From the NCBI GenBank assembly GCA_028717245.1, contig JAQUOD010000005.1:18637-82636 (forward strand): DNA of 64,000 nucleotides. Reading direction: 5' to 3'. The DNA comes from Candidatus Omnitrophota bacterium (lineage in GTDB: Bacteria > Omnitrophota > Gorgyraeia > Gygaellales > Profunditerraquicolaceae). Position 1 is the first letter of the stretch, and each line of letters opens with the position of its first letter. Below, in pieces: positions 7,318 to 53,960 of this stretch. The position numbers and the translations under genes were made by a program. A model generated the notes under the pieces. The model made no database searches and was not told where the DNA came from. It saw only the letters and a program-made list of their open reading frames with translations.

Positions 7318-7394
7318 GTCGTTAATCGTTATTCGTTAATCGTTATTAGATGGCTAACTTATCCATTAACGATTAACTATTAACCAATAACTAA
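7318..7394. repeat. CGTTAAT/CGTTATT x4 + ATTAACG-type x4 hairpin element abutting thrS start codon
   Basis: CGTTAAT, CGTTATT, CGTTAAT and CGTTATT are followed by loop AGATGGCTAACTTATCC and then ATTAACG, ATTAACT, ATTAACC and AATAACT. The element begins 1 nt from the thrS ATG on the minus strand. Confidence 0.85.
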
Positions 7395-7573: not shown

Positions 7574-8242
7574 TCATGATGGTTCGCAATAAACAGTTGT
7601 GCTTTTATCCCAACCTGTATACGAACTCAAGCACTGTTGAGCCAAATTTATCTTCCTCTCAAGCCCAAAGCAATGTTTATAATAACACTGTTTAGCAATT
7701 TCTCTTGCCGCCATTTTACCGTATTTTAATACCCAAAAATTATTTCTGCTGTTATGAATCTTACCGAAAACTTCTAATAACCCCGCTATTGTGTCGCTTA
7801 ACCAGTGAACAAATTCTTCGGAGCCAGAATATATCCTCAGGCTCCATTGTTCTCCTTTATTGGTCGGGTGTACCCAGCGACGGATACATCCGTCACCGTC
7901 AATTACTCCTCTTAAAAAATCAACGAAATATTGATTTGGTATTTCTAGAGCACCCAATGTCAGAGATTTATTTTGTGTTAGCCCAATCGATAAAAGGAAA
8001 TTGTATAAATTTTTGTTTCCTACCTGAATATGAAAACATCTCTGATTTTTACTATTATATTTGATACCAATTTTGTTCTTGAGCCCGGTTGCGTCTTTAA
8101 TCGCCTGAAGGAATTGAGAATCTTTAGAGGTTATGTCTATATGTCTCCCATCCGGACATAAACACCCATCAGTTGCAATCAAACCTACCAAATACCAAAG
8201 ATTTGAACCTTCAATTTTCAATTCTTTTCGCTTATTCGGCAT
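7574..8242 (-). CDS. free-standing LAGLIDADG homing endonuclease (two-motif, monomeric type)
   Basis: This 222-aa ORF has two LAGLIDADG motifs (LWYLVGLIATDGCL and FLRGVIDGDGCI). It fills the whole spacer between tRNA-Cys and tRNA-Leu with gaps of 6-7 nt. Confidence 0.8.
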   Translation of the reverse strand: MPNKRKELKIEGSNLWYLVGLIATDGCLCPDGRHIDITSKDSQFLQAIKDATGLKNKIGIKYNSKNQRCFHIQVGNKNLYNFLLSIGLTQNKSLTLGALEIPNQYFVDFLRGVIDGDGCIRRWVHPTNKGEQWSLRIYSGSEEFVHWLSDTIAGLLEVFGKIHNSRNNFWVLKYGKMAAREIAKQCYYKHCFGLERKINLAQQCLSSYTGWDKSTTVYCEPS

Positions 8243-14540: not shown

Positions 14541-14603
14541 AATTTTACCCCGCTAGATAAAGGTTATCCCGCCGCAACCACATTCTTTGGCGGGAGTGAT
14601 TAT

Positions 14604-17965: not shown

Positions 17966-22013
<4,048 letters not shown>

Positions 22014-22175: not shown

Positions 22176-25100
22176 ATGTATACGCGTAACGAAAAAATTA
22201 TCCCGGTTTATATTGAGGATGAGGTCAAGGACTCTTATTTAAATTATGCCATGAGCGTCATCGTCGGCCGCGCCCTGCCCGATATCCGCGACGGCTTAAA
22301 GCCGGTGCACAGGCGCATTCTTTATGCCATGCAGGAGCTTAATCTTGACCACTCTAAGCCTTATAAGAAATGCGCGCGTATCGTCGGCGAGGTCCTGGGT
22401 AAATACCATCCCCACGGCGATGTCGCGGTTTATGATGCCTTAGTCAGGATGGCCCAGGGTTTTTCCCTGCGCTATCCTTTGGTAGACGGGCAGGGAAATT
22501 TTGGATCGGTCGACGGGGATGCAGCTGCCGCGATGAGATATTGCGTCACCGGAGATACTCTGATTGTTACAGATAAAGGACTGCAAAGAATAGACAAACT
22601 TCCTCATCATTCCAAAACAGATTTTCGGGTACTTTCATTAAATAATAAGATAAATCATGTTTCAAAATGGTTTGATTCCGGAGAGCATTTAACTAAAAAA
22701 ATTACTACCTTTAGAGGTTTTAGCTTATGCGGGAGCCGGAATCATCCTATTTTAACGTGGCAACGTAATGGAACAAAGCCAAAATTAGTTTGGACACTAT
22801 TGAATAATGTAGAAAATGGCGATTTTGTCGTAGTCAGTAGGAGCGGTTCGTTATTCCCTTCAAGGGAACCTTTATTAAAAAAATTTTATCCAGAACTTCG
22901 AAACAGAAGGCAGGAGCATAAGCTTCCTCGCGCTATGAATGTAGATCTGGCTTTTATTTTGGGAGCGCTAATTGCAGAAGGTTCTATAAGCAGGGAACAA
23001 ATTGGATTCTGTAATGGGGATAAAGAGTTTCTACGGGAATTTAAATCGTGTTTCCAGCGAGTATTCCCCGATTGCAGGCTGCATGAATTTGTAAGAAAAC
23101 CGTTGAGTTATGGGAAAAAGAAATGTACTTATTTAGAAATTCATTCAATGCATGTTATAGATTTTTTGAAAAATCTAGGGTTACGTCAGTTGCGAGCTTA
23201 TGATAAAACCATTCCAGATATAATTTTTTCTTCCTCGAAAAAATCGGTTGCCGCGTTTATAAAAGGTTATGCAGAGGGAGATGGTAGTATTTGTGTTGGC
23301 AAAAGAAACCCTGATATCAGCTTGATATCAACCAGCGGAAAATTGATTCAAGGTTTACAGGTTTTCCTCCTAATGTTTGGCATTGATTCTTCGCATAGAT
23401 TTCATAAGCAAAAAAACTATTTTAGGTTGTTTATTAGAGGCCGCAACAATCTCGATTTATTTAAAAATCAAATAAATTTTGCTACTAGGAAAAGTCGTGA
23501 AAGGTTGATAGATATTTGTAATCGCAATAAAACTGATTGGGTTATGTCCAAGACAGATTGTATTCCCTACATCGCCGACTATCTTCGTAAAAAAAGCACA
23601 CGGTGCAAGAGAAAATATTGGGGGAACATAGAATGGCTAAAAAAACACAACATCGATAGGTACCCAAAAATAGAAAAATACTGGCCCAGGCTAAGAAGGG
23701 TTCTTGATAAAGACGATGTTAGTTTGTTTGAGGGTTTGATAAAAAATAGATATATCTTTGATAAAATTGTTTCGGTAGAAGATGCTGGTAAGAAAAGAGT
23801 CTATTCAATTAAAGTGGATAGCCCGTGCCACTCATTTGTATCCAATGGATTCATAAGTCATAATACTGAAGCGCGCCTGGCTGCTATTTCCGATGAGATA
23901 CTCGCGGATATTGATAAGGACACCGTAAATTTCGGGCCCAATTTTGACTCCTCCCTCAAAGAGCCGCTTTTATTGCCCGCGGCCTTGCCTAATCTGTTAG
24001 TGAACGGCTCAAGCGGTATAGCTGTGGGTATGGCTACCAATATCCCCCCGCACAATTTGAATGAAGTGGCCGATGCCATTATCTATCTATTAGATCATCC
24101 GGAAACCGAAATCAAGGACCTGATGCGTTATATCAAGGGTCCGGATTTTCCGACGGGCGGCGTAATCTGCGGCAGGAACGGTATCAAAGATGCCTATACC
24201 ACAGGAAAAGGTAAGCTCACCGTGCGCGCGCGGGCCACTATCGAGCGCCAGAAGAACGGCAAGGACCTGATTATAATTACTGAGATTCCCTACCAGGTGC
24301 AGAAATCCGCGTTAATTGAGGCCGCCGCCGCTTTGGTGGACGATAAAAAAATAGAGGGTATTTCTGACATCCGCGATGAATCCGATAAAGACGGGATGCG
24401 TATCGCGGTAGAACTCAAGCGCGACGTGGAAGCGCAGATTGTCTTGAATCAGCTCTTTAAACATACGCAACTGGAGACTACCTTCGGGATTATTATGCTG
24501 GCGCTGGTAGACAACAGGCCGCGGGTTTTGACGTTACGTCAGATGTTGGAATATTATATCGAGCACCGCAAGATTATCATCCGGCGCAGGACGCAATTTG
24601 AATTAGATAAGGCCTTAAAGAGGGCGCATATCTTAGAGGGCTTAAAGATTGCCCTGAAATACATCGACCGGATTATCAAGGTCATCAAGACCTCCAAGAA
24701 TACGGAGAATGCCAAAGAGCGCCTGATGAAGGAATTCGGCCTTTCTGATGTGCAGGCGCAGGCGATATTAGAAATGCAGTTGCAGCGCCTCACTGCTTTA
24801 GAGCGCGATAAGATTGACGCCGAATATTTAGAGCTCCTGAAAAAAATTGAACTGTGTAAAGCCATACTCGCCTCGGAGAAGAAAATTGAAGGCATCATCA
24901 AAGAGGATCTGGAGGCCTTAAAGAAAAAATACGGCGATGAACGCAGGACCGACCTGGTCGCCGAAGCAGAAGAATTAGAGGTGGAAGACCTTATCGCCGA
25001 AGAAGACGTAGTGGTGACAATAAGCCACGGCGGTTATATCAAGCGCTTGCCGGTGAGCGCCTACCGTAAACAGAAACGCGGGGGCACAGGGGCAACGGGC

Positions 25101-25931
25101 GCAGAAGTCAAAGAAGAGGATTTTATAGAACATCTTTTTGTGGCCTCGACCAAAGATTATTTATTGACCTTCGCTGATAAGGGCCAGGTGCATTGGCTCA
25201 AGGTTTATGAAATCCCGCAGGCCAGCCGCACTTCCAAAGGCAAGGCCATCATTAATCTTTTACAGATGGAAGCAGGCTCTAAAGTCAGCTCGACCATACC
25301 GGTGAAGGAATTCTCCGCTGACCAATACCTGGTAATGGTCACCAAGTGCGGCCAGATTAAAAAGACAAGGCTTGACGCCTACGGTAATCCGCGCAAGGGC
25401 GGGATTATCGGCATTAGCCTGGATAAGGGCGATGAGCTGATCGGCGTAGAGTTAACCGACGGAAAACAGGAGCTGCTTATCGGTACCCGCCAGGGTAAGG
25501 CCATAAGATTTTCTGAGAGCAAGGTGCGGGATATGGGCAGGCAGGCAGGAGGCGTACGCGCCATCTCTTTAGCCAAGAAAGACGAAGTGATTGCCATGGT
25601 TTTAGCCCAGAAGGATACCACAGTATTAACCGTTACGGAATTAGGCTTTGCCAAACGTACACCCATTCAAGAATACCGCCTGACCAGCCGCGGCGGCAAA
25701 GGCATTATTAATATAAAAGTCACCAGTAAGAACGGCGAGGCAGTAAGTTTAAAGACTGTCAGCGACAACGACGAGCTGATGGTTATTACACAGAACGGCA
25801 TGTTCTTACGTTGTGCGGTCAAAGATATCCGCACTACCGGCAGGTCTGCCCAGGGAGTGCGGCTGATTAAGCTACAGGAGAAAGACCGCGTTTCTTGCGT
25901 GGCGCCGGTGATTGCAGAAGAGGAAGAATAA
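22176..25931 (+). CDS. gyrA: DNA gyrase subunit A, intein-containing precursor (about 810-aa extein plus 441-aa intein)
   Basis: The GyrA N-terminus is present. AAMRY (catalytic Tyr at extein residue 122) is interrupted by CVTGDTLIV...NGFISHN and resumes at [11 protein letters not shown]. Confidence 0.95.
22542..23864 (+). mobile_element. GyrA intein with LAGLIDADG homing endonuclease domain
   Basis: It is inserted directly after the catalytic Tyr. Splice-junction blocks resemble the mycobacterial GyrA intein (…ITNGFVSHN). LAGLIDADG motifs are [14 protein letters not shown] and [14 protein letters not shown]. It is 1323 nt and in frame. Confidence 0.85.
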
Positions 25932-26044
25932 CCCCTAAAGTCCCCATCGTCTTCCCGCCATTCTATGCAATAGCAGGCGGGATCCCGCCTGAATATATAG
26001 GTTGTTTGGCGGGAAGCCTGGTCTATGACAAATTGTTGCAGGAC

Positions 26045-26308
26045 ATGTACTATGTTTATGTTCTTGAGAACGCGAAGGGTAAGTACTATATAGGCAGTTG
26101 CGAAAATCTATCGGCACGGCTAAAACAGCATAATCAAAACTGTGTTAGTTCGACAAAAAATAAAGGGCCATTTATAATAGTTTACAAAGAAGATTGTGCC
26201 ACAAAAACAGAAGCACGTAAACGAGAGAGCCAGTTAAAGGGCTACAAAGGCAACAGTAAGTTTGATAGATTAATAACGAGCTTGTCCCCATCGTCTAGCC
26301 TGGTCTAG
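26045..26308 (+). CDS. GIY-YIG nuclease family protein (small YhbQ-like)
   Basis: The sequence MYYVYVLENAKGKYYIGSCENLSARLKQHNQ...KTEARKRESQLKGY carries the GIY-YIG motifs. The likely start is ATG 26045, and the longer track ORF from 25895 overlaps gyrA. The last 8 codons read into tRNA-Glu. Confidence 0.7.
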   Translation: MYYVYVLENAKGKYYIGSCENLSARLKQHNQNCVSSTKNKGPFIIVYKEDCATKTEARKRESQLKGYKGNSKFDRLITSLSPSSSLV

Positions 26309-26358
26309 GACAAGAGCTTTTCAAGCTCTCGACACCGGTTCAAATCCGGTTGGGGACG
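26284..26358 (+). tRNA. tRNA-Glu (anticodon TTC)
   Basis: The sequence is GTCCCCATCGTCTAG...AGAGC-TTTTCAA-GCTCT...ACCGGTTCAAATCCGGT-TGGGGAC-G. It closely resembles canonical bacterial tRNA-Glu. Confidence 0.85.
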
Positions 26359-26508
26359 TTAATATTGACCGGTTCCCCGCCTACGCACCTTGAATTTACT
26401 TCGTAAAGCGCTATGGTGTACTTCGCGGGTCCGCCGTAGCTCACCAAAGCTAAGAAGGAAATCTACCAAAGAACGAAGGCGGAAAATCCGGTTGGGGACG
26501 TTAATATT
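26343..26508 (+). repeat. 25-bp direct repeat AAATCCGGTTGGGGACGTTAATATT (tRNA-Glu 3' end plus 8 nt) flanking a 117-bp insert
   Basis: Copy A is at 26343-26367 and copy B at 26484-26508, immediately 5' of the glmS ATG. Confidence 0.85.
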
Positions 26509-28350
26509 ATGTGCGGAATAATCGGTTATATCGGCCAAAGGTCAGCCCAGGAGATTTTACTCAACGGCCTGAAGCGCCTGGAGTATCGCGGTTATGATTC
26601 CAGTGGCATGGCTATCATCCTGTCTGGCAAAAATGCCCTCTCCGTCAGAAAATCTGCGGGCAAGATCAGCGCGCTGGAAAATCTCCTGCATAAAAAGCCC
26701 CTGGCCGGGAATCTAGGTATTGCCCATACCAGATGGGCGACGCATGGAGCGCCCAACCAAATCAACGCCCACCCCCATAGCGATTGTCACGACGAAATCG
26801 CCGTTGTCCATAACGGCATCATTGAAAATTATGCTAAATTAAAAAATGAGCTTATTAAGGAAGGCCATAAATTCTTAAGCCAGACCGATACCGAGGTAAT
26901 CGTGCATCTTGTAGAAAAGTTTTATTGTAACAGCACTCCCTTAGAAGAGGCGTTTAGGAAGGCGCTTGGTAAATTAGAGGGTTCTTTTGCCATTGCGGTT
27001 GTTTCACAAAAAGAACCCGATAAGCTAATCGGCGCGCGCCTAGGCAGTCCTTTAATTGTCGGCGTGGGCAAGAAGGAGAATTTTCTTGCCTCGGATGCGC
27101 CGGCGATATTAGATGCTACGAACGAAGTGATTTTTTTAAATGATAATGAAGTGGCGGTTCTGGAGAAGGATAGTGTTCGGGTAACGGACTTTAGCGGCAA
27201 AAACATCCCTAAGAATACGGTGCGCCTGAACTGGGATATTGACCAGGCCCAGAAACAAGGGTACAGGCATTTTATGCTCAAGGAGATTAATGAGCAACCC
27301 AAGATACTGGAGAATATCCTGGGTATGACCATCAGGAAAGAAACCGGCAAAATATTCTTTGAAGATTTGGGGATTCCCGAAGAGCAGCTGAAGAAAAAAC
27401 AAAATATTATTATTGTGGCCTGCGGCACTGCTTATCATGCGGGCTTATGCGGTAAGTATATTATAGAAGAACTCTGTAGGGTGCCGGTAAGCGTAGATGT
27501 GTCCAGTGAGTTTCGCTACCGTAACCCCCTGATTAATGCGGATACACTGGTAGTAGCTATCAGCCAGTCAGGCGAGACCGCAGATACCCTGGCAGCAGTG
27601 CGGGAAGCCAGGAAAAAAGGCGCAGCGGTATTAGCTATTTGTAATGTTTTAGGTGCCAGCCTGGTGCGCGAATCTGACGCTACAATCTATACCCATGCCG
27701 GCCCTGAGATAGGCGTGGCCTCCACCAAGGCCTATACGGCGCAGCTAGCTATTCTGTATCTGTTCGCCTTGTATCTGGCAGGCCTGAAGCGGGTTTTAGC
27801 CGAGGATAAAATAGAGCGGATTGTTAGCGTTCTCAAGAAAACTCCTCATCTGCAAAAGCAGGTCCTGGAGAATCAGGAAGTTATCAAAGAGGTTGCCCGC
27901 CGGCATTCCCATTTCGGTTCATTTTTATTTTTGGGCAGGAACATCAATTATCCTTCGGCGCTGGAAGGCGCGCTGAAATTAAAAGAGATTTCTTATATTC
28001 CGGCTGAGGGCTATGCTGCTGGCGAAATGAAGCATGGGCCTATTGCCTTAATTGATGAATACCGCGCCGTGGTCTGTATTGCGCTTGAATCGGGCGTCTA
28101 CGAAAAGATGGCCTCTAATATCCAGGAGATACGCAGCCGCCAGGGCAAGATTATCGCTATTGCCAGCCAAGGGGATGAAAACATACAAGAACTCACCCGC
28201 GAAGTTATCTATGTGCCTAAAATAGAGGAGTTATTTTCTCCGTTAATAGTAGCGCTGCCATTACAGTTATTAGCCTACCATATTGCCGTCAAGCGCGATT
28301 GCGATGTGGACCAGCCGCGTAATTTAGCCAAGTCCGTAACCGTCGAATAG
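26509..28350 (+). CDS. glmS: glutamine--fructose-6-phosphate aminotransferase
   Basis: It has the N-terminal MCGIIGYIG (Ntn amidotransferase), two SIS domains, and is 613 aa. Confidence 0.95.
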   Translation: MCGIIGYIGQRSAQEILLNGLKRLEYRGYDSSGMAIILSGKNALSVRKSAGKISALENLLHKKPLAGNLGIAHTRWATHGAPNQINAHPHSDCHDEIAVVHNGIIENYAKLKNELIKEGHKFLSQTDTEVIVHLVEKFYCNSTPLEEAFRKALGKLEGSFAIAVVSQKEPDKLIGARLGSPLIVGVGKKENFLASDAPAILDATNEVIFLNDNEVAVLEKDSVRVTDFSGKNIPKNTVRLNWDIDQAQKQGYRHFMLKEINEQPKILENILGMTIRKETGKIFFEDLGIPEEQLKKKQNIIIVACGTAYHAGLCGKYIIEELCRVPVSVDVSSEFRYRNPLINADTLVVAISQSGETADTLAAVREARKKGAAVLAICNVLGASLVRESDATIYTHAGPEIGVASTKAYTAQLAILYLFALYLAGLKRVLAEDKIERIVSVLKKTPHLQKQVLENQEVIKEVARRHSHFGSFLFLGRNINYPSALEGALKLKEISYIPAEGYAAGEMKHGPIALIDEYRAVVCIALESGVYEKMASNIQEIRSRQGKIIAIASQGDENIQELTREVIYVPKIEELFSPLIVALPLQLLAYHIAVKRDCDVDQPRNLAKSVTVE

Positions 28351-52550: not shown

Positions 52551-53522
52551 ATGCACCTTCTCGAACGTACAAACAGGTTTAAAAGAATAGAGAGAAGATT
52601 TGATTCTCCCATTGAAGATTTGCTTTATCAGATGCATTGGCTGGAAGATATGAAGCATAGGGATATTGCCCTAAATTTGCATGCGCCGAGAGCAACAATA
52701 ACAAGATGGTTTCGCCGTTTGCAGGTGCCAACTCAGAGTTGCCGCAGATTTACTGATATGAATCTAACAAGTTGGCTATATAAAATTGGAAAATTAAAAA
52801 AGAAACCCCGCTATAGCGGTCCAGACAAAAGGCTCCAGCGGACAAGACAGGGATTAAATGTAGATTTCTTCAAGAAATGGTCAGTAGAGATGGCTTATGT
52901 ATTGGGATATTTCGCTGCCGATGGGTGCATGTTTATTAATCCGCGGGGGTCAAAATATATTTCATTTACTTCTTGTGACCGCGAAATCTTGCAGAAAGTC
53001 AAGCGGATGTTGGGCTCTGAGCATAAGTTTAGTGTAAAAAATAGGCAGAATAGAAACTGGAAAGATGCTTTTACCTTACAAATTGGTTCCAAAGAGATGT
53101 ATCAGGATTTAATAAAAAAAGGTTTTATGCCTAAAAAAGCATCTAGATTTAAATTGCCGGCCGTGCCTAAAAAATATATGAGGCACTTTATTAGAGGGTA
53201 TTTTGATGGTGATGGCAGCGTTACTTATGGGTATTTTAAAAGAAAAGATAGAAATAATAAGATGACTTCATACCTTTTAACTTGTTTATCTTCGGCAAAT
53301 TTACGTTTTTTAAGGGGAATCTCCAAGGTTTTGAAAGAAAATATAGGTATTAACGGAGGATATATAGATAAAAAAGGTGGCCACCTTGCTTATTCTAAGC
53401 TTGACAGCATTAAGTTATTCCAGTATATTTATACAAACGTTAATAAGGGGCAATACTTAGAAAGAAAATATAAGAAGTTTAGGAAGGCATTCGAAATTAA
53501 TAGGGGCTGTGGCCTAGTCTAG
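52551..53522 (+). CDS. free-standing LAGLIDADG homing endonuclease (second copy, two-motif type)
   Basis: It is 323 aa with the motifs AYVLGYFAADGCMF and FIRGYFDGDGSV. It starts 11 nt after tRNA-Val, and its last codons overlap the 5' end of tRNA-Asp. Confidence 0.8.
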   Translation: MHLLERTNRFKRIERRFDSPIEDLLYQMHWLEDMKHRDIALNLHAPRATITRWFRRLQVPTQSCRRFTDMNLTSWLYKIGKLKKKPRYSGPDKRLQRTRQGLNVDFFKKWSVEMAYVLGYFAADGCMFINPRGSKYISFTSCDREILQKVKRMLGSEHKFSVKNRQNRNWKDAFTLQIGSKEMYQDLIKKGFMPKKASRFKLPAVPKKYMRHFIRGYFDGDGSVTYGYFKRKDRNNKMTSYLLTCLSSANLRFLRGISKVLKENIGINGGYIDKKGGHLAYSKLDSIKLFQYIYTNVNKGQYLERKYKKFRKAFEINRGCGLV

Positions 53523-53817: not shown

Positions 53818-53960
53818 TTGCATTTGCTATCGCGTATGGTATAATTGTTTTAAAAGCAATAGTAGATAAGTAAGTGGTCTGGGAATATACAAAAGTATTC
53901 CCGGAGGATTTTCGATGGTCGGGCCGCCATCTTGCATGATAATGCGGGATGGCGTTTTTT
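53818..53960 (+). promoter_or_regulatory. promoter (TTGCAT-16-TGgTATAAT) plus leader with mutually exclusive antiterminator/terminator hairpins
   Basis: The leader contains GGGAATA...TATTCCC, then GATGG-TCGGGCC-GCCATC overlapping CGCCATC-...-GATGGCG-TTTTTT. This lies 34 nt upstream of ATG 53994. Confidence 0.55.

Follow-up and report, generated by a model that had tools for sequence, protein, structure and literature searches.

Why does the 3' end of a tRNA-Glu gene stand twice in front of glmS in this Candidatus Omnitrophota chromosome? In the 64,000-nt stretch of DNA that we analysed (hereafter the window), the 25-mer AAATCCGGTTGGGGACGTTAATATT occurs in exactly two plus-strand copies, at 26342-26366 and 26484-26508, whereas none of 100 dinucleotide shuffles yielded any match and none is expected by chance. 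The copies are spaced 142 nt apart, so the intervening segment (26367-26483) measures 117 nt. A first-pass annotation of this DNA had already reported the duplication at the tRNA-Glu 3' end and its 117-bp spacing, and both hold; its position for the second copy is exact, while that for the first (26343-26367) is off by one base. As it also stated, the second copy directly abuts the glmS start codon, an ATG at 26509.

The repeat is one edge of a nuclease-tRNA composite

The 25-mer repeat forms the right-hand edge of a conserved composite of ~570 bp, which takes up the tRNA-Glu site that separates gyrA from glmS within a dnaA-dnaN-gyrB-gyrA-glmS neighbourhood, and is one of four tRNA-derived pieces surrounding a GIY-YIG gene. 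The composite runs from gyrA through a 5' pseudo-half, the GIY-YIG ORF overlapping the tRNA, the intact tRNA-Glu and a 3' pseudo-half to glmS:

22176-25931, plus strand: gyrA with LAGLIDADG intein, left chromosomal flank (Pfam DNA_topoisoIV, DNA_gyraseA_C, Intein_splicing, LAGLIDADG_3)
25940-25952, plus strand: 5' pseudo-half, piece a, a copy of tRNA-Glu positions 1-13 (acceptor and D-stem 5' strands), 13/13 identical to 26284-26296
25953-26014, plus strand: 62-nt double-hairpin plug, TCCCGCC-N16-GGCGGGA then TCCCGCC-N18-GGCGGGA
26015-26031, plus strand: 5' pseudo-half, piece b, a copy of tRNA-Glu positions 14-30, 16/17 identical to 26297-26313
26032-26044, plus strand: 13-nt junction from the truncated pseudo-half to the nuclease start codon
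26045-26308, plus strand: 87-aa minimal GIY-YIG nuclease of the UPF0213/YhbQ type (Pfam PF01541, E=1.9e-15)
26284-26358, plus strand: intact tRNA-Glu(UUC) (ARAGORN; Rfam RF00005, 59.8 bits), CCA not encoded
26342-26366, plus strand: repeat copy 1, tRNA-Glu positions 59-75 (last 17 nt) and the 8-nt flank TTAATATT
26367-26375, plus strand: 3' pseudo-half, piece a, GACCGGTTC, the T-stem 5' strand and first three T-loop bases, 8/8 matching tRNA positions 51-58
26376-26483, plus strand: 108-nt two-hairpin insertion in the pseudo-half T loop, between TTC and AAAT, CCCGCC...GCGGG then TCCGCC...GGCGGA
26484-26508, plus strand: repeat copy 2, which is 3' pseudo-half, piece b: remaining T loop, T-stem 3' strand, acceptor 3' strand, discriminator base and native 8-nt flank
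26509-28350, plus strand: glmS, right chromosomal flank, a 613-aa ORF starting MCGIIG, 71-79% identical to glmS of Omnitrophota relatives, with no identical protein found on record

The duplication of the tRNA-Glu 5' part upstream of the nuclease gene (25940-25952, 26015-26031) had been missed by the first-pass annotation. This 5' pseudo-half begins 8 nt past the gyrA stop (TAA, 25929-25931), and the tRNA at the empty site of the closest relative, locus L001, begins 7 nt past it. The 62-nt plug sits at the D-stem/D-loop boundary; excising it restores the tRNA sequence, with no target duplication. The half stops at position 30, the whole anticodon arm being missing, and the window copy belongs to a sub-lineage with L026 that shares this truncation; the L026 junction is near-identical to the 13-nt junction here (agcctggtctaggataa-atgtttgcagggc-ATG). 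On the 3' side, the insertion point is likewise exact, falling between GGTTC and AAATCC. The second tRNA-Glu copy is dead, its loops plugged by pairs of GC-rich hairpins.

The duplication had been attributed to an integrase, and a tyrosine-integrase element that entered the tRNA-Glu 3' end, duplicated its att core and was later deleted to 117 bp would account for a directly repeated tRNA 3' end bounding inserted DNA (25 nt exact, 142 nt apart) and for relatives with an empty site. Islands placed by integrases at tRNA 3' ends likewise show an intact tRNA with a directly repeated 3' segment beside it. However, the anatomy of the composite contradicts an att scar. The true repeat unit starts at the T-stem 5' strand, right after the flank of the first copy; since the native 8-nt flank leads directly into this strand, there can be no island DNA between the repeat units. 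It is native flank, not element DNA, that follows the intact tRNA. The 117-bp segment, though given its correct length, is no remnant of a deleted integrase element but consists of the T-stem 5' strand and the 108-nt insertion, which lies inside the T loop and has conserved two-hairpin counterparts at that position elsewhere. Unlike in integrase islands, the repeat unit is interrupted by hairpins and the native flank and the tRNA 5' part are duplicated as well, and no integrase was detected in the 19 window ORFs scanned. We consider this origin extremely improbable. The D-loop-like fragment reported within the 117 bp, GTAGCTCA, is present (26437-26444), but in the second hairpin's loop, and its resemblance to a tRNA D loop is probably a coincidence.

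A bare UPF0213 nuclease overlaps the tRNA gene

UPF0213/YhbQ proteins are very common small bacterial proteins, for which we found neither a function nor a tRNA association described in the searchable literature. The window protein is a clear sequence member of this group (UPF0213/YhbQ/COG2827, SLX1-related), having the same domain content, similarity over the whole domain and a size within ~80-110 aa. Its family profile matches PDB 1zg2 (UPF0213 protein BH0048, E=4.8e-13) and 1ywl (E=7.7e-8), as well as an SLX1 homologue. The catalytic GIY-YIG domain spans residues 1-70 of the 87 and retains all residues that are invariant in the family alignment (Y5, Y15, R25, H29, N30 and E61). No second domain was detected with Pfam, NCBIfam or PHROG, including any DNA-binding domain that could confer site specificity.

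The ORF ends inside the tRNA-Glu gene, as the first-pass annotation had it: the overlap is 25 nt, the last 8 codons and the TAG stop codon lie within the tRNA, and the stop is borrowed from the D-loop region. The C-terminal tail, SPSSSLV followed by the stop, is the translated tRNA 5' end and is common to most homologues; tails ending in either SPSSSLV or VPIV represent the tRNA 5' end read in two frames. The gene is indeed the third nuclease gene in the window that touches a tRNA, the two further ones being LAGLIDADG genes (7574-8242, minus strand; 52551-53522, plus strand). For the other six tRNAs of the window, duplicated fragments did not exceed chance 11-mers, which sets the LAGLIDADG/tRNA pairs apart from the composite.

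The composite recurs and its site is empty in close relatives

The composite recurs in about 25 other Omnitrophota loci. With t denoting tRNA positions, the left part of the recurrent layout reads t[1-13], plug, t[14-38], plug, t[39-48], 3-8 nt and nuclease ATG, and the right part reads intact tRNA, spacer, t[23-38], plug, t[39-58], plug and t[59-76]. In a metagenome locus scan queried with the narrower family alignment A2, tRNA-Glu overlapped the ORF end in all 21 loci whose nuclease homologue was at least 55% identical. The closest homologue, at 75%, is that of L026.

At the conserved gyrA-glmS locus, the composite is present in some relatives and absent from others. L001 carries a clean gyrA-tRNA-Glu-glmS site, with 92% identity to the window in the gyrA C-terminus and 79% in glmS. 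It shares with L008 the arrangement gyrA, 7 nt, tRNA-Glu, ~18 nt, glmS; in place of the 75-nt tRNA gene of these empty sites, the window has 561 nt. Filled sites comprise the window, L020, L022, L026-L037 and others, and the loci L007, L002 and L006 have neither nuclease gene nor tRNA duplicates. Comparing the tRNA-Glu/glmS junction across relatives, as the first-pass annotation had suggested, thus bears out its view of the duplication as the trace of an insertion into a tRNA gene, one that is polymorphic among relatives.

Several observations point beyond this single site. The composite lies outside gyrA-glmS in L019 and L043, and probably also in L038 and L046, where the flanks are partly visible. 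In 6 of 22 loci, the acceptor stem of the pseudo-half differs from that of the intact tRNA, and its variants correspond to alleles that are functional in other genomes; L020 and L041, for instance, show GACCCTG versus GTCCCCA. The correlation of nuclease identity with host gyrA identity is weak (r=0.22); between L034 and the window, gyrA is 62% but the nuclease 68% identical. We regard the chimeric acceptor alleles, the composites away from gyrA-glmS and the weak coupling between host and nuclease as signs of mobility.

The same loci could instead reflect a resident, non-mobile nuclease that breaks DNA close to its own gene, where faulty recombinational repair generated local partial tRNA duplications in tandem, in the manner of an accordion, which then decayed, were inherited vertically and were lost by recombination between repeats. 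Native flanks are duplicated together with the 3' copies in the window, L022, L003 and L067, and the identical 8-nt flank after both 3' copies suggests that the structure arose by duplication on the spot and not through a foreign tRNA being imported. The patchy distribution could in large part stem from long vertical descent with sporadic losses, given that gyrA-glmS houses most of the composites. Moreover, tandem repeat units occur in L019, L041, L004 and L026, and the phage nuclease SegB, whose cuts within tRNA genes lead to tandemly amplified tRNA+segB units, causes exactly such repeats (PMC13096335). A purely resident arrangement is, however, at odds with the chimeric tRNA alleles within single loci, with composites at unrelated loci, with the weakly coupled divergence of nuclease and host, and with the appearance of the same design with different tRNAs on unrelated contigs. 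On balance, we judge it rather unlikely.

Hairpin plugs keep their stems paired

We compared the plugs among loci. The 5' plugs of L019, L022, L026, L028, L029 and L039 occupy the same position as that of the window, and the T-loop insertion falls at the same point between GGTTC and AAATCC in L004, L005, L019, L031, L032, L035 and L039; piece a of the 3' pseudo-half also precedes the insertion in L004, L005, L019, L026, L031, L032 and L035. The layout of the 108-nt insertion aligns with the 110-116-nt insertions of L031, L032, L035 and L039. In the consensus structure of the T-loop insertion, the T stem encloses a pair of hairpins; compensatory changes are seen at 17 of 42 base pairs. Variable stem bases were complementary in 65 of 88 hairpins, compared to a mean of 24 (maximum 35) when partners were shuffled. 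According to these data, the hairpin stems are kept paired via compensatory changes.

Covarying stems are in keeping with a functional RNA, be it a cis-regulatory or processing element for the glmS or nuclease mRNA or the halves of a split or intron-containing tRNA, as are the location of the pieces, which immediately precede two start codons within the gyrA-glmS transcription unit, and the closeness of the tRNA-derived segments to the intact tRNA sequence. Against such a role, the closest relatives lack the pieces: in L001 and L008, only ~18 nt separate the tRNA from glmS. In L019, the pieces stand apart from glmS; the 5' half in the window has no anticodon arm at all, and the fold energy of its 3' piece is ordinary relative to shuffled sequence (z=-1.3). 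Rfam searches, at the gathering threshold for the whole window and at E≤1 for 25850-26600, returned only tRNA, with no family for the 108-nt insertion and neither a group I intron nor a glmS ribozyme. The glmS leader or riboswitch that the first-pass annotation had named as another possible source of the second 25-mer falls away on these grounds, and the segment is missing from the closest relative. A tRNA intron or split tRNA was likewise rejected: the interrupted copies are partial, an intact uninterrupted tRNA-Glu stands alongside, and no group I intron matched (the bulge-helix-bulge motif was judged by eye). In L020, the acceptor strands of the halves are non-complementary, which excludes a split tRNA. 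Altogether, a functional RNA appears very unlikely.

A different possibility is that the hairpins are themselves the mobile agents, REP/MITE-like or IS200-like, entering single-stranded loops and possibly mobilised by the GIY-YIG enzyme, with dead tRNAs as the sole places where they are tolerated. The plugs are seamless, loop-specific and free of target duplication; hairpins are nested within the loops of other hairpins in L034 and L037, the left and right plugs of L028 are unrelated, and individual hairpins have been swapped in L031. The same hairpin type accompanies GIY-YIG genes at other tRNAs, and the nuclease is related to the structure-specific enzyme SLX1. Yet the 64-kb window contains, beyond the composite, one solitary hairpin of this type (14567-14595) and no double hairpin, which argues against a genome-wide family, and every double hairpin of the related loci lies inside tRNA-Glu-derived loops; the many intergenic copies of a REP/MITE-like dispersal were not seen. 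Furthermore, plugs that share a position frequently show clear homology from locus to locus, fitting inheritance over repeated insertion, and GIY-YIG enzymes are, to our knowledge, hydrolytic nucleases with no known strand-joining activity. We deem independently mobile hairpins unlikely.

We also followed the 14-nt hairpin core GGCGGGATCCCGCC into viral contigs, where it gave at least 120 matches; none of the 120 listed was a double hairpin, so these matches are chance palindromes.

More distant homologues adjoin other tRNAs

A simpler version of the layout recurs at other tRNAs: homologues at 35-50% identity adjoin tRNA-Val, Asn, Arg, Met or tmRNA. Incomplete tRNA duplicates were found near the nuclease gene in 15 of the 24 loci checked, mostly on its far side, and in the loci inspected TCC(C)G..C(G)GGA hairpins replace loops or arms of these partial copies. 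L053 has a different GC hairpin in place of a loop or arm, and in L077 an 81-nt "tRNA-Arg" call contains such a hairpin. A constant type of hairpin sequence across different tRNAs and taxa would be unexpected were the hairpins only disruptors.

A phage vector was considered and rejected: viral contigs held three distant homologues (31-38% identity) with no tRNA nearby, and no close homologue of the nuclease was found in them.

Discussion

The observed anatomy of the composite, its recurrence, the empty sites, the stem-compensating changes and the mismatched tRNA alleles within loci lead us to favour, by a modest measure, a nuclease gene fused to a working tRNA-Glu that would behave like a free-standing homing-endonuclease cassette of the SegB type. 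In this model, the nuclease would break cassette-free tRNA-Glu genes, and repair would copy the cassette in, with the tRNA-derived arms serving as homology. The host would tolerate the cassette because a working tRNA-Glu comes with it. Owing to the hairpin plugs, the leftover halves would not function as tRNA; the plugs may also block recognition of the halves by the nuclease, or their recombination with the intact copy, which would delete the cassette. A general anti-recombination threshold, with all repeats below ~25 nt, was considered and dropped, as many loci retain a 38-nt uninterrupted 5' segment.

Several points weigh against homing, among them the duplicated native flanks, the gyrA-glmS locus common to most composites, the constant hairpin type and the lack of close homologues in the viral contigs searched, all described above. 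Unlike SegB or I-TevI, the nuclease amounts to a catalytic domain of 87 aa in which no DNA-binding domain is recognisable. In addition, the intact tRNA of the cassette keeps all potential target sequences, so self-cleavage must somehow be avoided.

SegB of T4/T6, itself a GIY-YIG enzyme, recognises the T-stem-loop motif of tRNA genes and homes together with neighbouring tRNA genes (PMC2330249). The T-loop plug splits exactly this motif. Both nucleases share the catalytic domain and a gene embedded among tRNA genes, and the microhomology reported between the segB 3' end and the tRNA 5' end (PMC13096335) has its counterpart in the overlap of ORF 3' end and tRNA 5' end described here. In contrast to SegB, which resides in a phage tRNA cluster, the composite lies in a bacterial chromosome by housekeeping genes of the oriC region, the ORF is physically fused to the tRNA, the protein is a bare UPF0213 domain without the extra C-terminal region of Seg enzymes, and the hairpin-plugged pseudo-tRNA halves are not described for SegB.

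A further likeness comes from organelles. In work by Paquin, Laforest and Lang (1990s-2000), a mobile endonuclease ORF in the Allomyces mitochondrial atp6 gene reportedly carries a duplicate of the displaced gene end, and mitochondrial double-hairpin elements, short paired GC hairpins, are said to be seemingly mobile and to colonise non-essential spots. There, too, an endonuclease ORF in an essential gene brings a replacement part and the old piece becomes a downstream pseudogene. These cases, which we liken by description, differ in concerning organelle genomes and a protein-coding target, and we know of no demonstrated link between hairpin and endonuclease in them.

We found no description of a hairpin-plugged nuclease-tRNA arrangement in the searchable literature, and a nuclease-tRNA cassette with plugged pseudo-halves seems to be undescribed. 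More tentatively, and as a possibility that we rate short of probable, UPF0213 GIY-YIG genes with hairpin-plugged pseudo-tRNAs may constitute a widespread, undescribed class of selfish elements targeting bacterial tRNA genes, in which the hairpins are an integral working part. They may be the structure that the nuclease recognises or mobilises, or else a device for immunity or against recombination. Such an element would be hard to lose, carrying as it does the working tRNA of the cell, with the displaced copy kept dead.

Should they prove consistently linked to tRNA genes, to duplicated parts of these and to one specific hairpin type, UPF0213/YhbQ proteins would gain a first functional handle, and the SegB-type partnership of nuclease and tRNA gene would be carried from phages into bacterial chromosomes. 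Some incomplete tRNA genes and puzzling "tRNA" annotations in metagenome-assembled genomes, that of L077 among them, would be explained as well. Being seamless, confined to loops and kept paired in their stems by compensatory changes, the plugs pose a concrete, testable puzzle.

A tRNA-Glu gene is duplicated around a GIY-YIG nuclease gene

The 25-mer AAATCCGGTTGGGGACGTTAATATT, which had been taken for the att scar of an integrase acting on tRNA-Glu, occurs exactly twice in the window, at 26342-26366 and 26484-26508 (within one base of the first-pass annotation), and was matched in 0 of 100 shuffled sequences. Copy 1 comprises the final 17 nt of an intact tRNA-Glu(UUC) and an 8-nt flank, and copy 2 adjoins the glmS start codon at 26509; the identical 8-nt flank follows the intact tRNA and recurs before glmS. 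The 117-bp segment reported between the repeats has the size given but has to be read differently. It opens with GACCGGTTC (26367-26375), corresponding to the 5' strand of the T stem followed by the initial three bases of the T loop (8/8 matches to tRNA positions 51-58), and copy 2 picks up at AAAT, the next T-loop bases. The 3' piece therefore represents an entire T arm and the acceptor 3' strand. The 5' part of tRNA-Glu, overlooked in the first pass, is likewise duplicated, upstream of the nuclease gene. The features are:

25940-25952, copy of tRNA positions 1-13 (13/13 identical)
26015-26031, copy of tRNA positions 14-30 (16/17 identical)
26045-26308, GIY-YIG ORF, 87 aa (PF01541, E=1.9e-15)
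26284-26358, intact tRNA-Glu(UUC)
26376-26483, two-hairpin insertion of 108 nt, interrupting the T loop of the 3' piece between TTC and AAAT

A 62-nt insert parts the two 5' copies and consists of adjacent hairpins, TCCCGCC-N16-GGCGGGA followed by TCCCGCC-N18-GGCGGGA. With tRNA-Glu-derived segments written as t[a-b] by linear position, and GC hairpin insertions in the pseudo-halves called plugs, the layout runs from the gyrA stop through 8 nt, t[1-13], the hairpin pair, t[14-30] and 13 nt into the nuclease ORF. It continues with the ORF-overlapped intact tRNA-Glu, the 8-nt flank, the T arm with plugged T loop and acceptor 3' strand, the same 8-nt flank, and glmS.

That the nuclease gene reads into the tRNA was confirmed: the overlap is 25 nt, and the stop is a TAG in the tRNA D-loop region. 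The protein is a minimal GIY-YIG domain of the UPF0213/YhbQ type lacking a recognisable DNA-binding domain; among solved structures, 1zg2, 1ywl and that of an SLX1 homologue are nearest to it. Within the ORF, at 26150-26178 and thus ~100 nt ahead of the tRNA, there is a strong match to a sigma-70-like promoter (TCGACA-17 nt-TATAAT, 11/12); it may be a chance match, because by eye it seems unconserved in the related locus L020.

The composite recurs in related loci

The homologue set comprised 39 proteins, mostly from Omnitrophota and about 80-130 aa long, and 71 metagenome loci (loci of relatives and metagenomes carry handles of the form L001). In all 21 metagenome loci whose homologue reaches 55% identity, tRNA-Glu(UUC) overlaps the ORF end. 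Most sequences of the protein alignment terminate in SPSSSLV or VPIV directly before the stop, and these tails are the tRNA 5' end in two translation frames.

Mapping by a script that locates tRNA-derived segments and double hairpins revealed the composite architecture in about 25 loci. Upstream of the nuclease it reads t[1-13], an optional plug, t[14-38], a plug within the anticodon (standard positions 35/36), t[39-~48], 3-8 nt and ATG; downstream of the intact tRNA it reads spacer, t[~23-38], plug, t[39-58], T-loop plug (standard positions 56/57) and t[59-76]. Deleting any plug exactly restores the tRNA sequence, and there is no target duplication. The window carries a trimmed variant, sharing the unusual junction …agcctggtcta.ga.aa-at.tt.gcagg.c-ATG with L026, whose nuclease is also the closest (75%). 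Its long T-loop insertion is matched in layout by insertions of 110-116 nt that L031, L032, L035 and L039 carry at the equivalent point. In consensus these fold as two hairpins closed by the T stem, with compensatory changes in 17 of 42 pairs among only five sequences. An Rfam search of the segment, even at E<=1, matched the tRNA alone; a functional RNA is one of the rival readings.

The hairpins share the termini TCCCG...CGGGA and a central CGGGATCCCG, and their variable stem extensions stay complementary in 65 of 88 cases (shuffled partners: mean 24, maximum 35). They range from tiny (TCCCGCTTTGCGGGA, L031) to long, are nested in another hairpin's loop in L034 and L037, and are unrelated between left and right plug in L028. 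These sequence features indicate a structure that is maintained or continually renewed, rather than decaying filler. Double hairpins of this type are restricted to the tRNA-Glu locus within the 64-kb window, and in the related loci all of them lie inside tRNA-Glu-derived loops; the restriction within the window speaks against another rival reading, in which the hairpins themselves are the mobile agents. The sole other copy in the window, a solitary plug-type hairpin (TCCCGCC-N15-GGCGGGA, 14567-14595), occupies the spacer between two minus-strand ORFs.

Empty sites argue against a conserved leader

A glmS scan places the organism in Candidatus Omnitrophota and shows gyrA-tRNA-Glu-glmS as the conserved gene order among relatives; the window is the origin region (dnaA-dnaN-gyrB-gyrA). 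The empty site that the first pass had proposed to look for exists: the closest relative, L001 (gyrA C-terminus 92%, glmS 79%), has a clean site of gyrA, 7 nt, a single tRNA-Glu, about 18 nt and glmS, and L008 has the same tight layout. Neither the nuclease gene nor tRNA duplicates were found at L007, L002 and L006, where the pre-glmS spacer is longer and, in L006, contains one hairpin. The segment is therefore not a conserved glmS leader, which is ruled out by its absence from relatives with empty sites. The integrase scar was rejected as well: only the plug inside the second unit separates the 3' repeat units, leaving no element DNA between them, the intact tRNA is followed by its native flank, and no integrase was found among the 19 window ORFs scanned. 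The empty-site result fits a nuclease-centred insertion equally well, and every expectation of such an insertion holds.

Some relatives carry another repeat family upstream of glmS, whose unit consists of CCCCGCG...long hairpin...CGCGGG with ATTTCGCTAGAC behind it (L005 340-770, three tandem copies; L006 405-470; L015 4900-4990); this unit is similar to hairpin one in the long T-loop insertions. Separately, a ~56-nt unit (…gttttca.ccgagtcct…) whose last bases are the tRNA 3' end CCGGTTGGGGACGC repeats downstream of tRNA-Glu in L004 (4653-4900), a locus without the nuclease gene, and L026 (3478-3560), and may be another type of 3'-end duplicate.

Signs of exchange between lineages

The composite also occurs away from gyrA-glmS, in L043 and in L019 (flanked by genes for a FIST-domain and a helix-turn-helix protein), the sole well-resolved case, and probably in L038 and L046, whose flanks are partly visible. 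At 6 of 22 loci the 5' pseudo-half and the intact tRNA next to it have different acceptor stems, the variants equalling functional alleles found elsewhere: L020 has GACCCTG in the pseudo-half and GTCCCCA in the intact tRNA, L041 the reverse, and L005 both allele types. Nuclease and host gyrA identities correlate weakly (r=0.22, 66 pairs); between L034 and the window, gyrA is 62% and the nuclease 68% identical. Parts of the unit are tandemly repeated in L026, L003, L019, L041 and L004. These signs argue for between-lineage exchange and continuing rearrangement, without proving homing. In one rival reading the nuclease only induces duplications locally, which are then inherited vertically; the duplicated native flanks do point to a local duplication as the beginning of the structure. 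At L019 (3735-4560), a gene resembling phage Bro-N/antirepressor (translated sequence, by eye), which follows the 3' pseudo-tRNA copies after ~200 nt, hints at mobile-element surroundings.

Plugged tRNA copies accompany nucleases at other tRNA genes

Of the other 50 metagenome loci, 23 have a tRNA-Val, Asn, Arg, Ser, Ala, Met or tmRNA gene no more than about 200 nt from a more distant nuclease homologue (35-50% identity). A partial copy of the neighbouring tRNA was present near the nuclease gene in 15 of 24 loci checked, usually on the side away from that tRNA. In the copies inspected, short GC hairpins replace loops or arms, as in L067 (tRNA-Asn, TCCCGACACAGTCGGGA ahead of the anticodon), L072 (tRNA-Arg, TCCGCCTAAGGCGGA and TCCGCCGGAAGGCGGA in the anticodon and T regions) and L053 (tRNA-Val, ATCGGCCCAGGCCGAT in the D arm). 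Hairpin density in the same loci is 0.83 per kb within 400 nt of the nuclease gene vs 0.22 elsewhere, about fourfold. The L053 ORF also runs into a downstream tRNA copy, stopping at the D-loop TAG. Given these hairpin-bearing copies and the L053 read-in, the window's feature is one case of a wider design. L067 (150-800) has two tandem GIY-YIG genes, each followed by a hairpin-bearing tRNA-Asn copy, and the native flank ATTTTCG recurs after the final one. An 81-nt ARAGORN 'tRNA-Arg' in L077 (327-407) may be a plugged pseudo-tRNA wrongly called a gene, because it includes the TCCGCCTGCGGCGGA hairpin.

The window holds further features. Two free-standing LAGLIDADG endonuclease genes sit tightly between tRNA genes, at 7574-8242 (-) between tRNA-Cys and tRNA-Leu and at 52551-53522 (+) between tRNA-Val and tRNA-Asp, the latter sharing 20 nt with tRNA-Asp; in contrast to the tRNA-Glu site, neither has duplicated pieces of a tRNA beside it. 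Inteins are present in gyrB (18243-22013; splicing domain and weak HNH match) and gyrA (22176-25931; LAGLIDADG domains), making the origin-proximal region unusually rich in such elements; gyrA is intein-free in some relatives. An nhaA-I riboswitch-family match (53875-53932, 47.3 bits, above gathering score) lies downstream of tRNA-Asp, and a run of TAACGAT/TTAATCG-like motifs (7320-7390, minus-strand reading) directly downstream of tRNA-Val(GAC).

A proposed homing model with precedent in SegB

The best functional analogue is SegB of phages T4/T6, a free-standing homing endonuclease of the GIY-YIG type encoded among the clustered tRNA genes, whose recognition site centres on a conserved T-stem-loop motif and which is co-inherited with neighbouring tRNA genes (PMC2330249). 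SegB cleaves within tRNA genes and causes recombination-dependent tandem amplification of the tRNA+segB unit (PMC13096335). By analogy, we infer that the Omnitrophota nuclease would break tRNA-Glu genes, and repair off the cassette-bearing chromosome would bring in the nuclease with a working tRNA, so that the host would lose nothing. The displaced tRNA gene would persist as two arms, with plugs dividing them in the D, anticodon and T loops; the one in the T loop interrupts exactly the motif that SegB reads. Plugs could prevent the arms from functioning as tRNA, shield them from cleavage, or block their recombination with the intact copy, which would delete the cassette. Given the ORF-tRNA overlap, RNase P acting on a read-through transcript would also cut away the nuclease stop codon, a possible brake on expression. 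The homing reading is weak in that it leaves the intact tRNA exposed as a possible target, the nuclease has no recognisable DNA-binding domain, and one hairpin sequence type across taxa is left without explanation.

In the searchable literature we found no description of the composite arrangement or of any UPF0213-tRNA association. Mitochondrial endonuclease ORFs with a duplicated gene end are a precedent for parts of the composite, as is SegB; the hairpin plugs are the unexplained and possibly new component.
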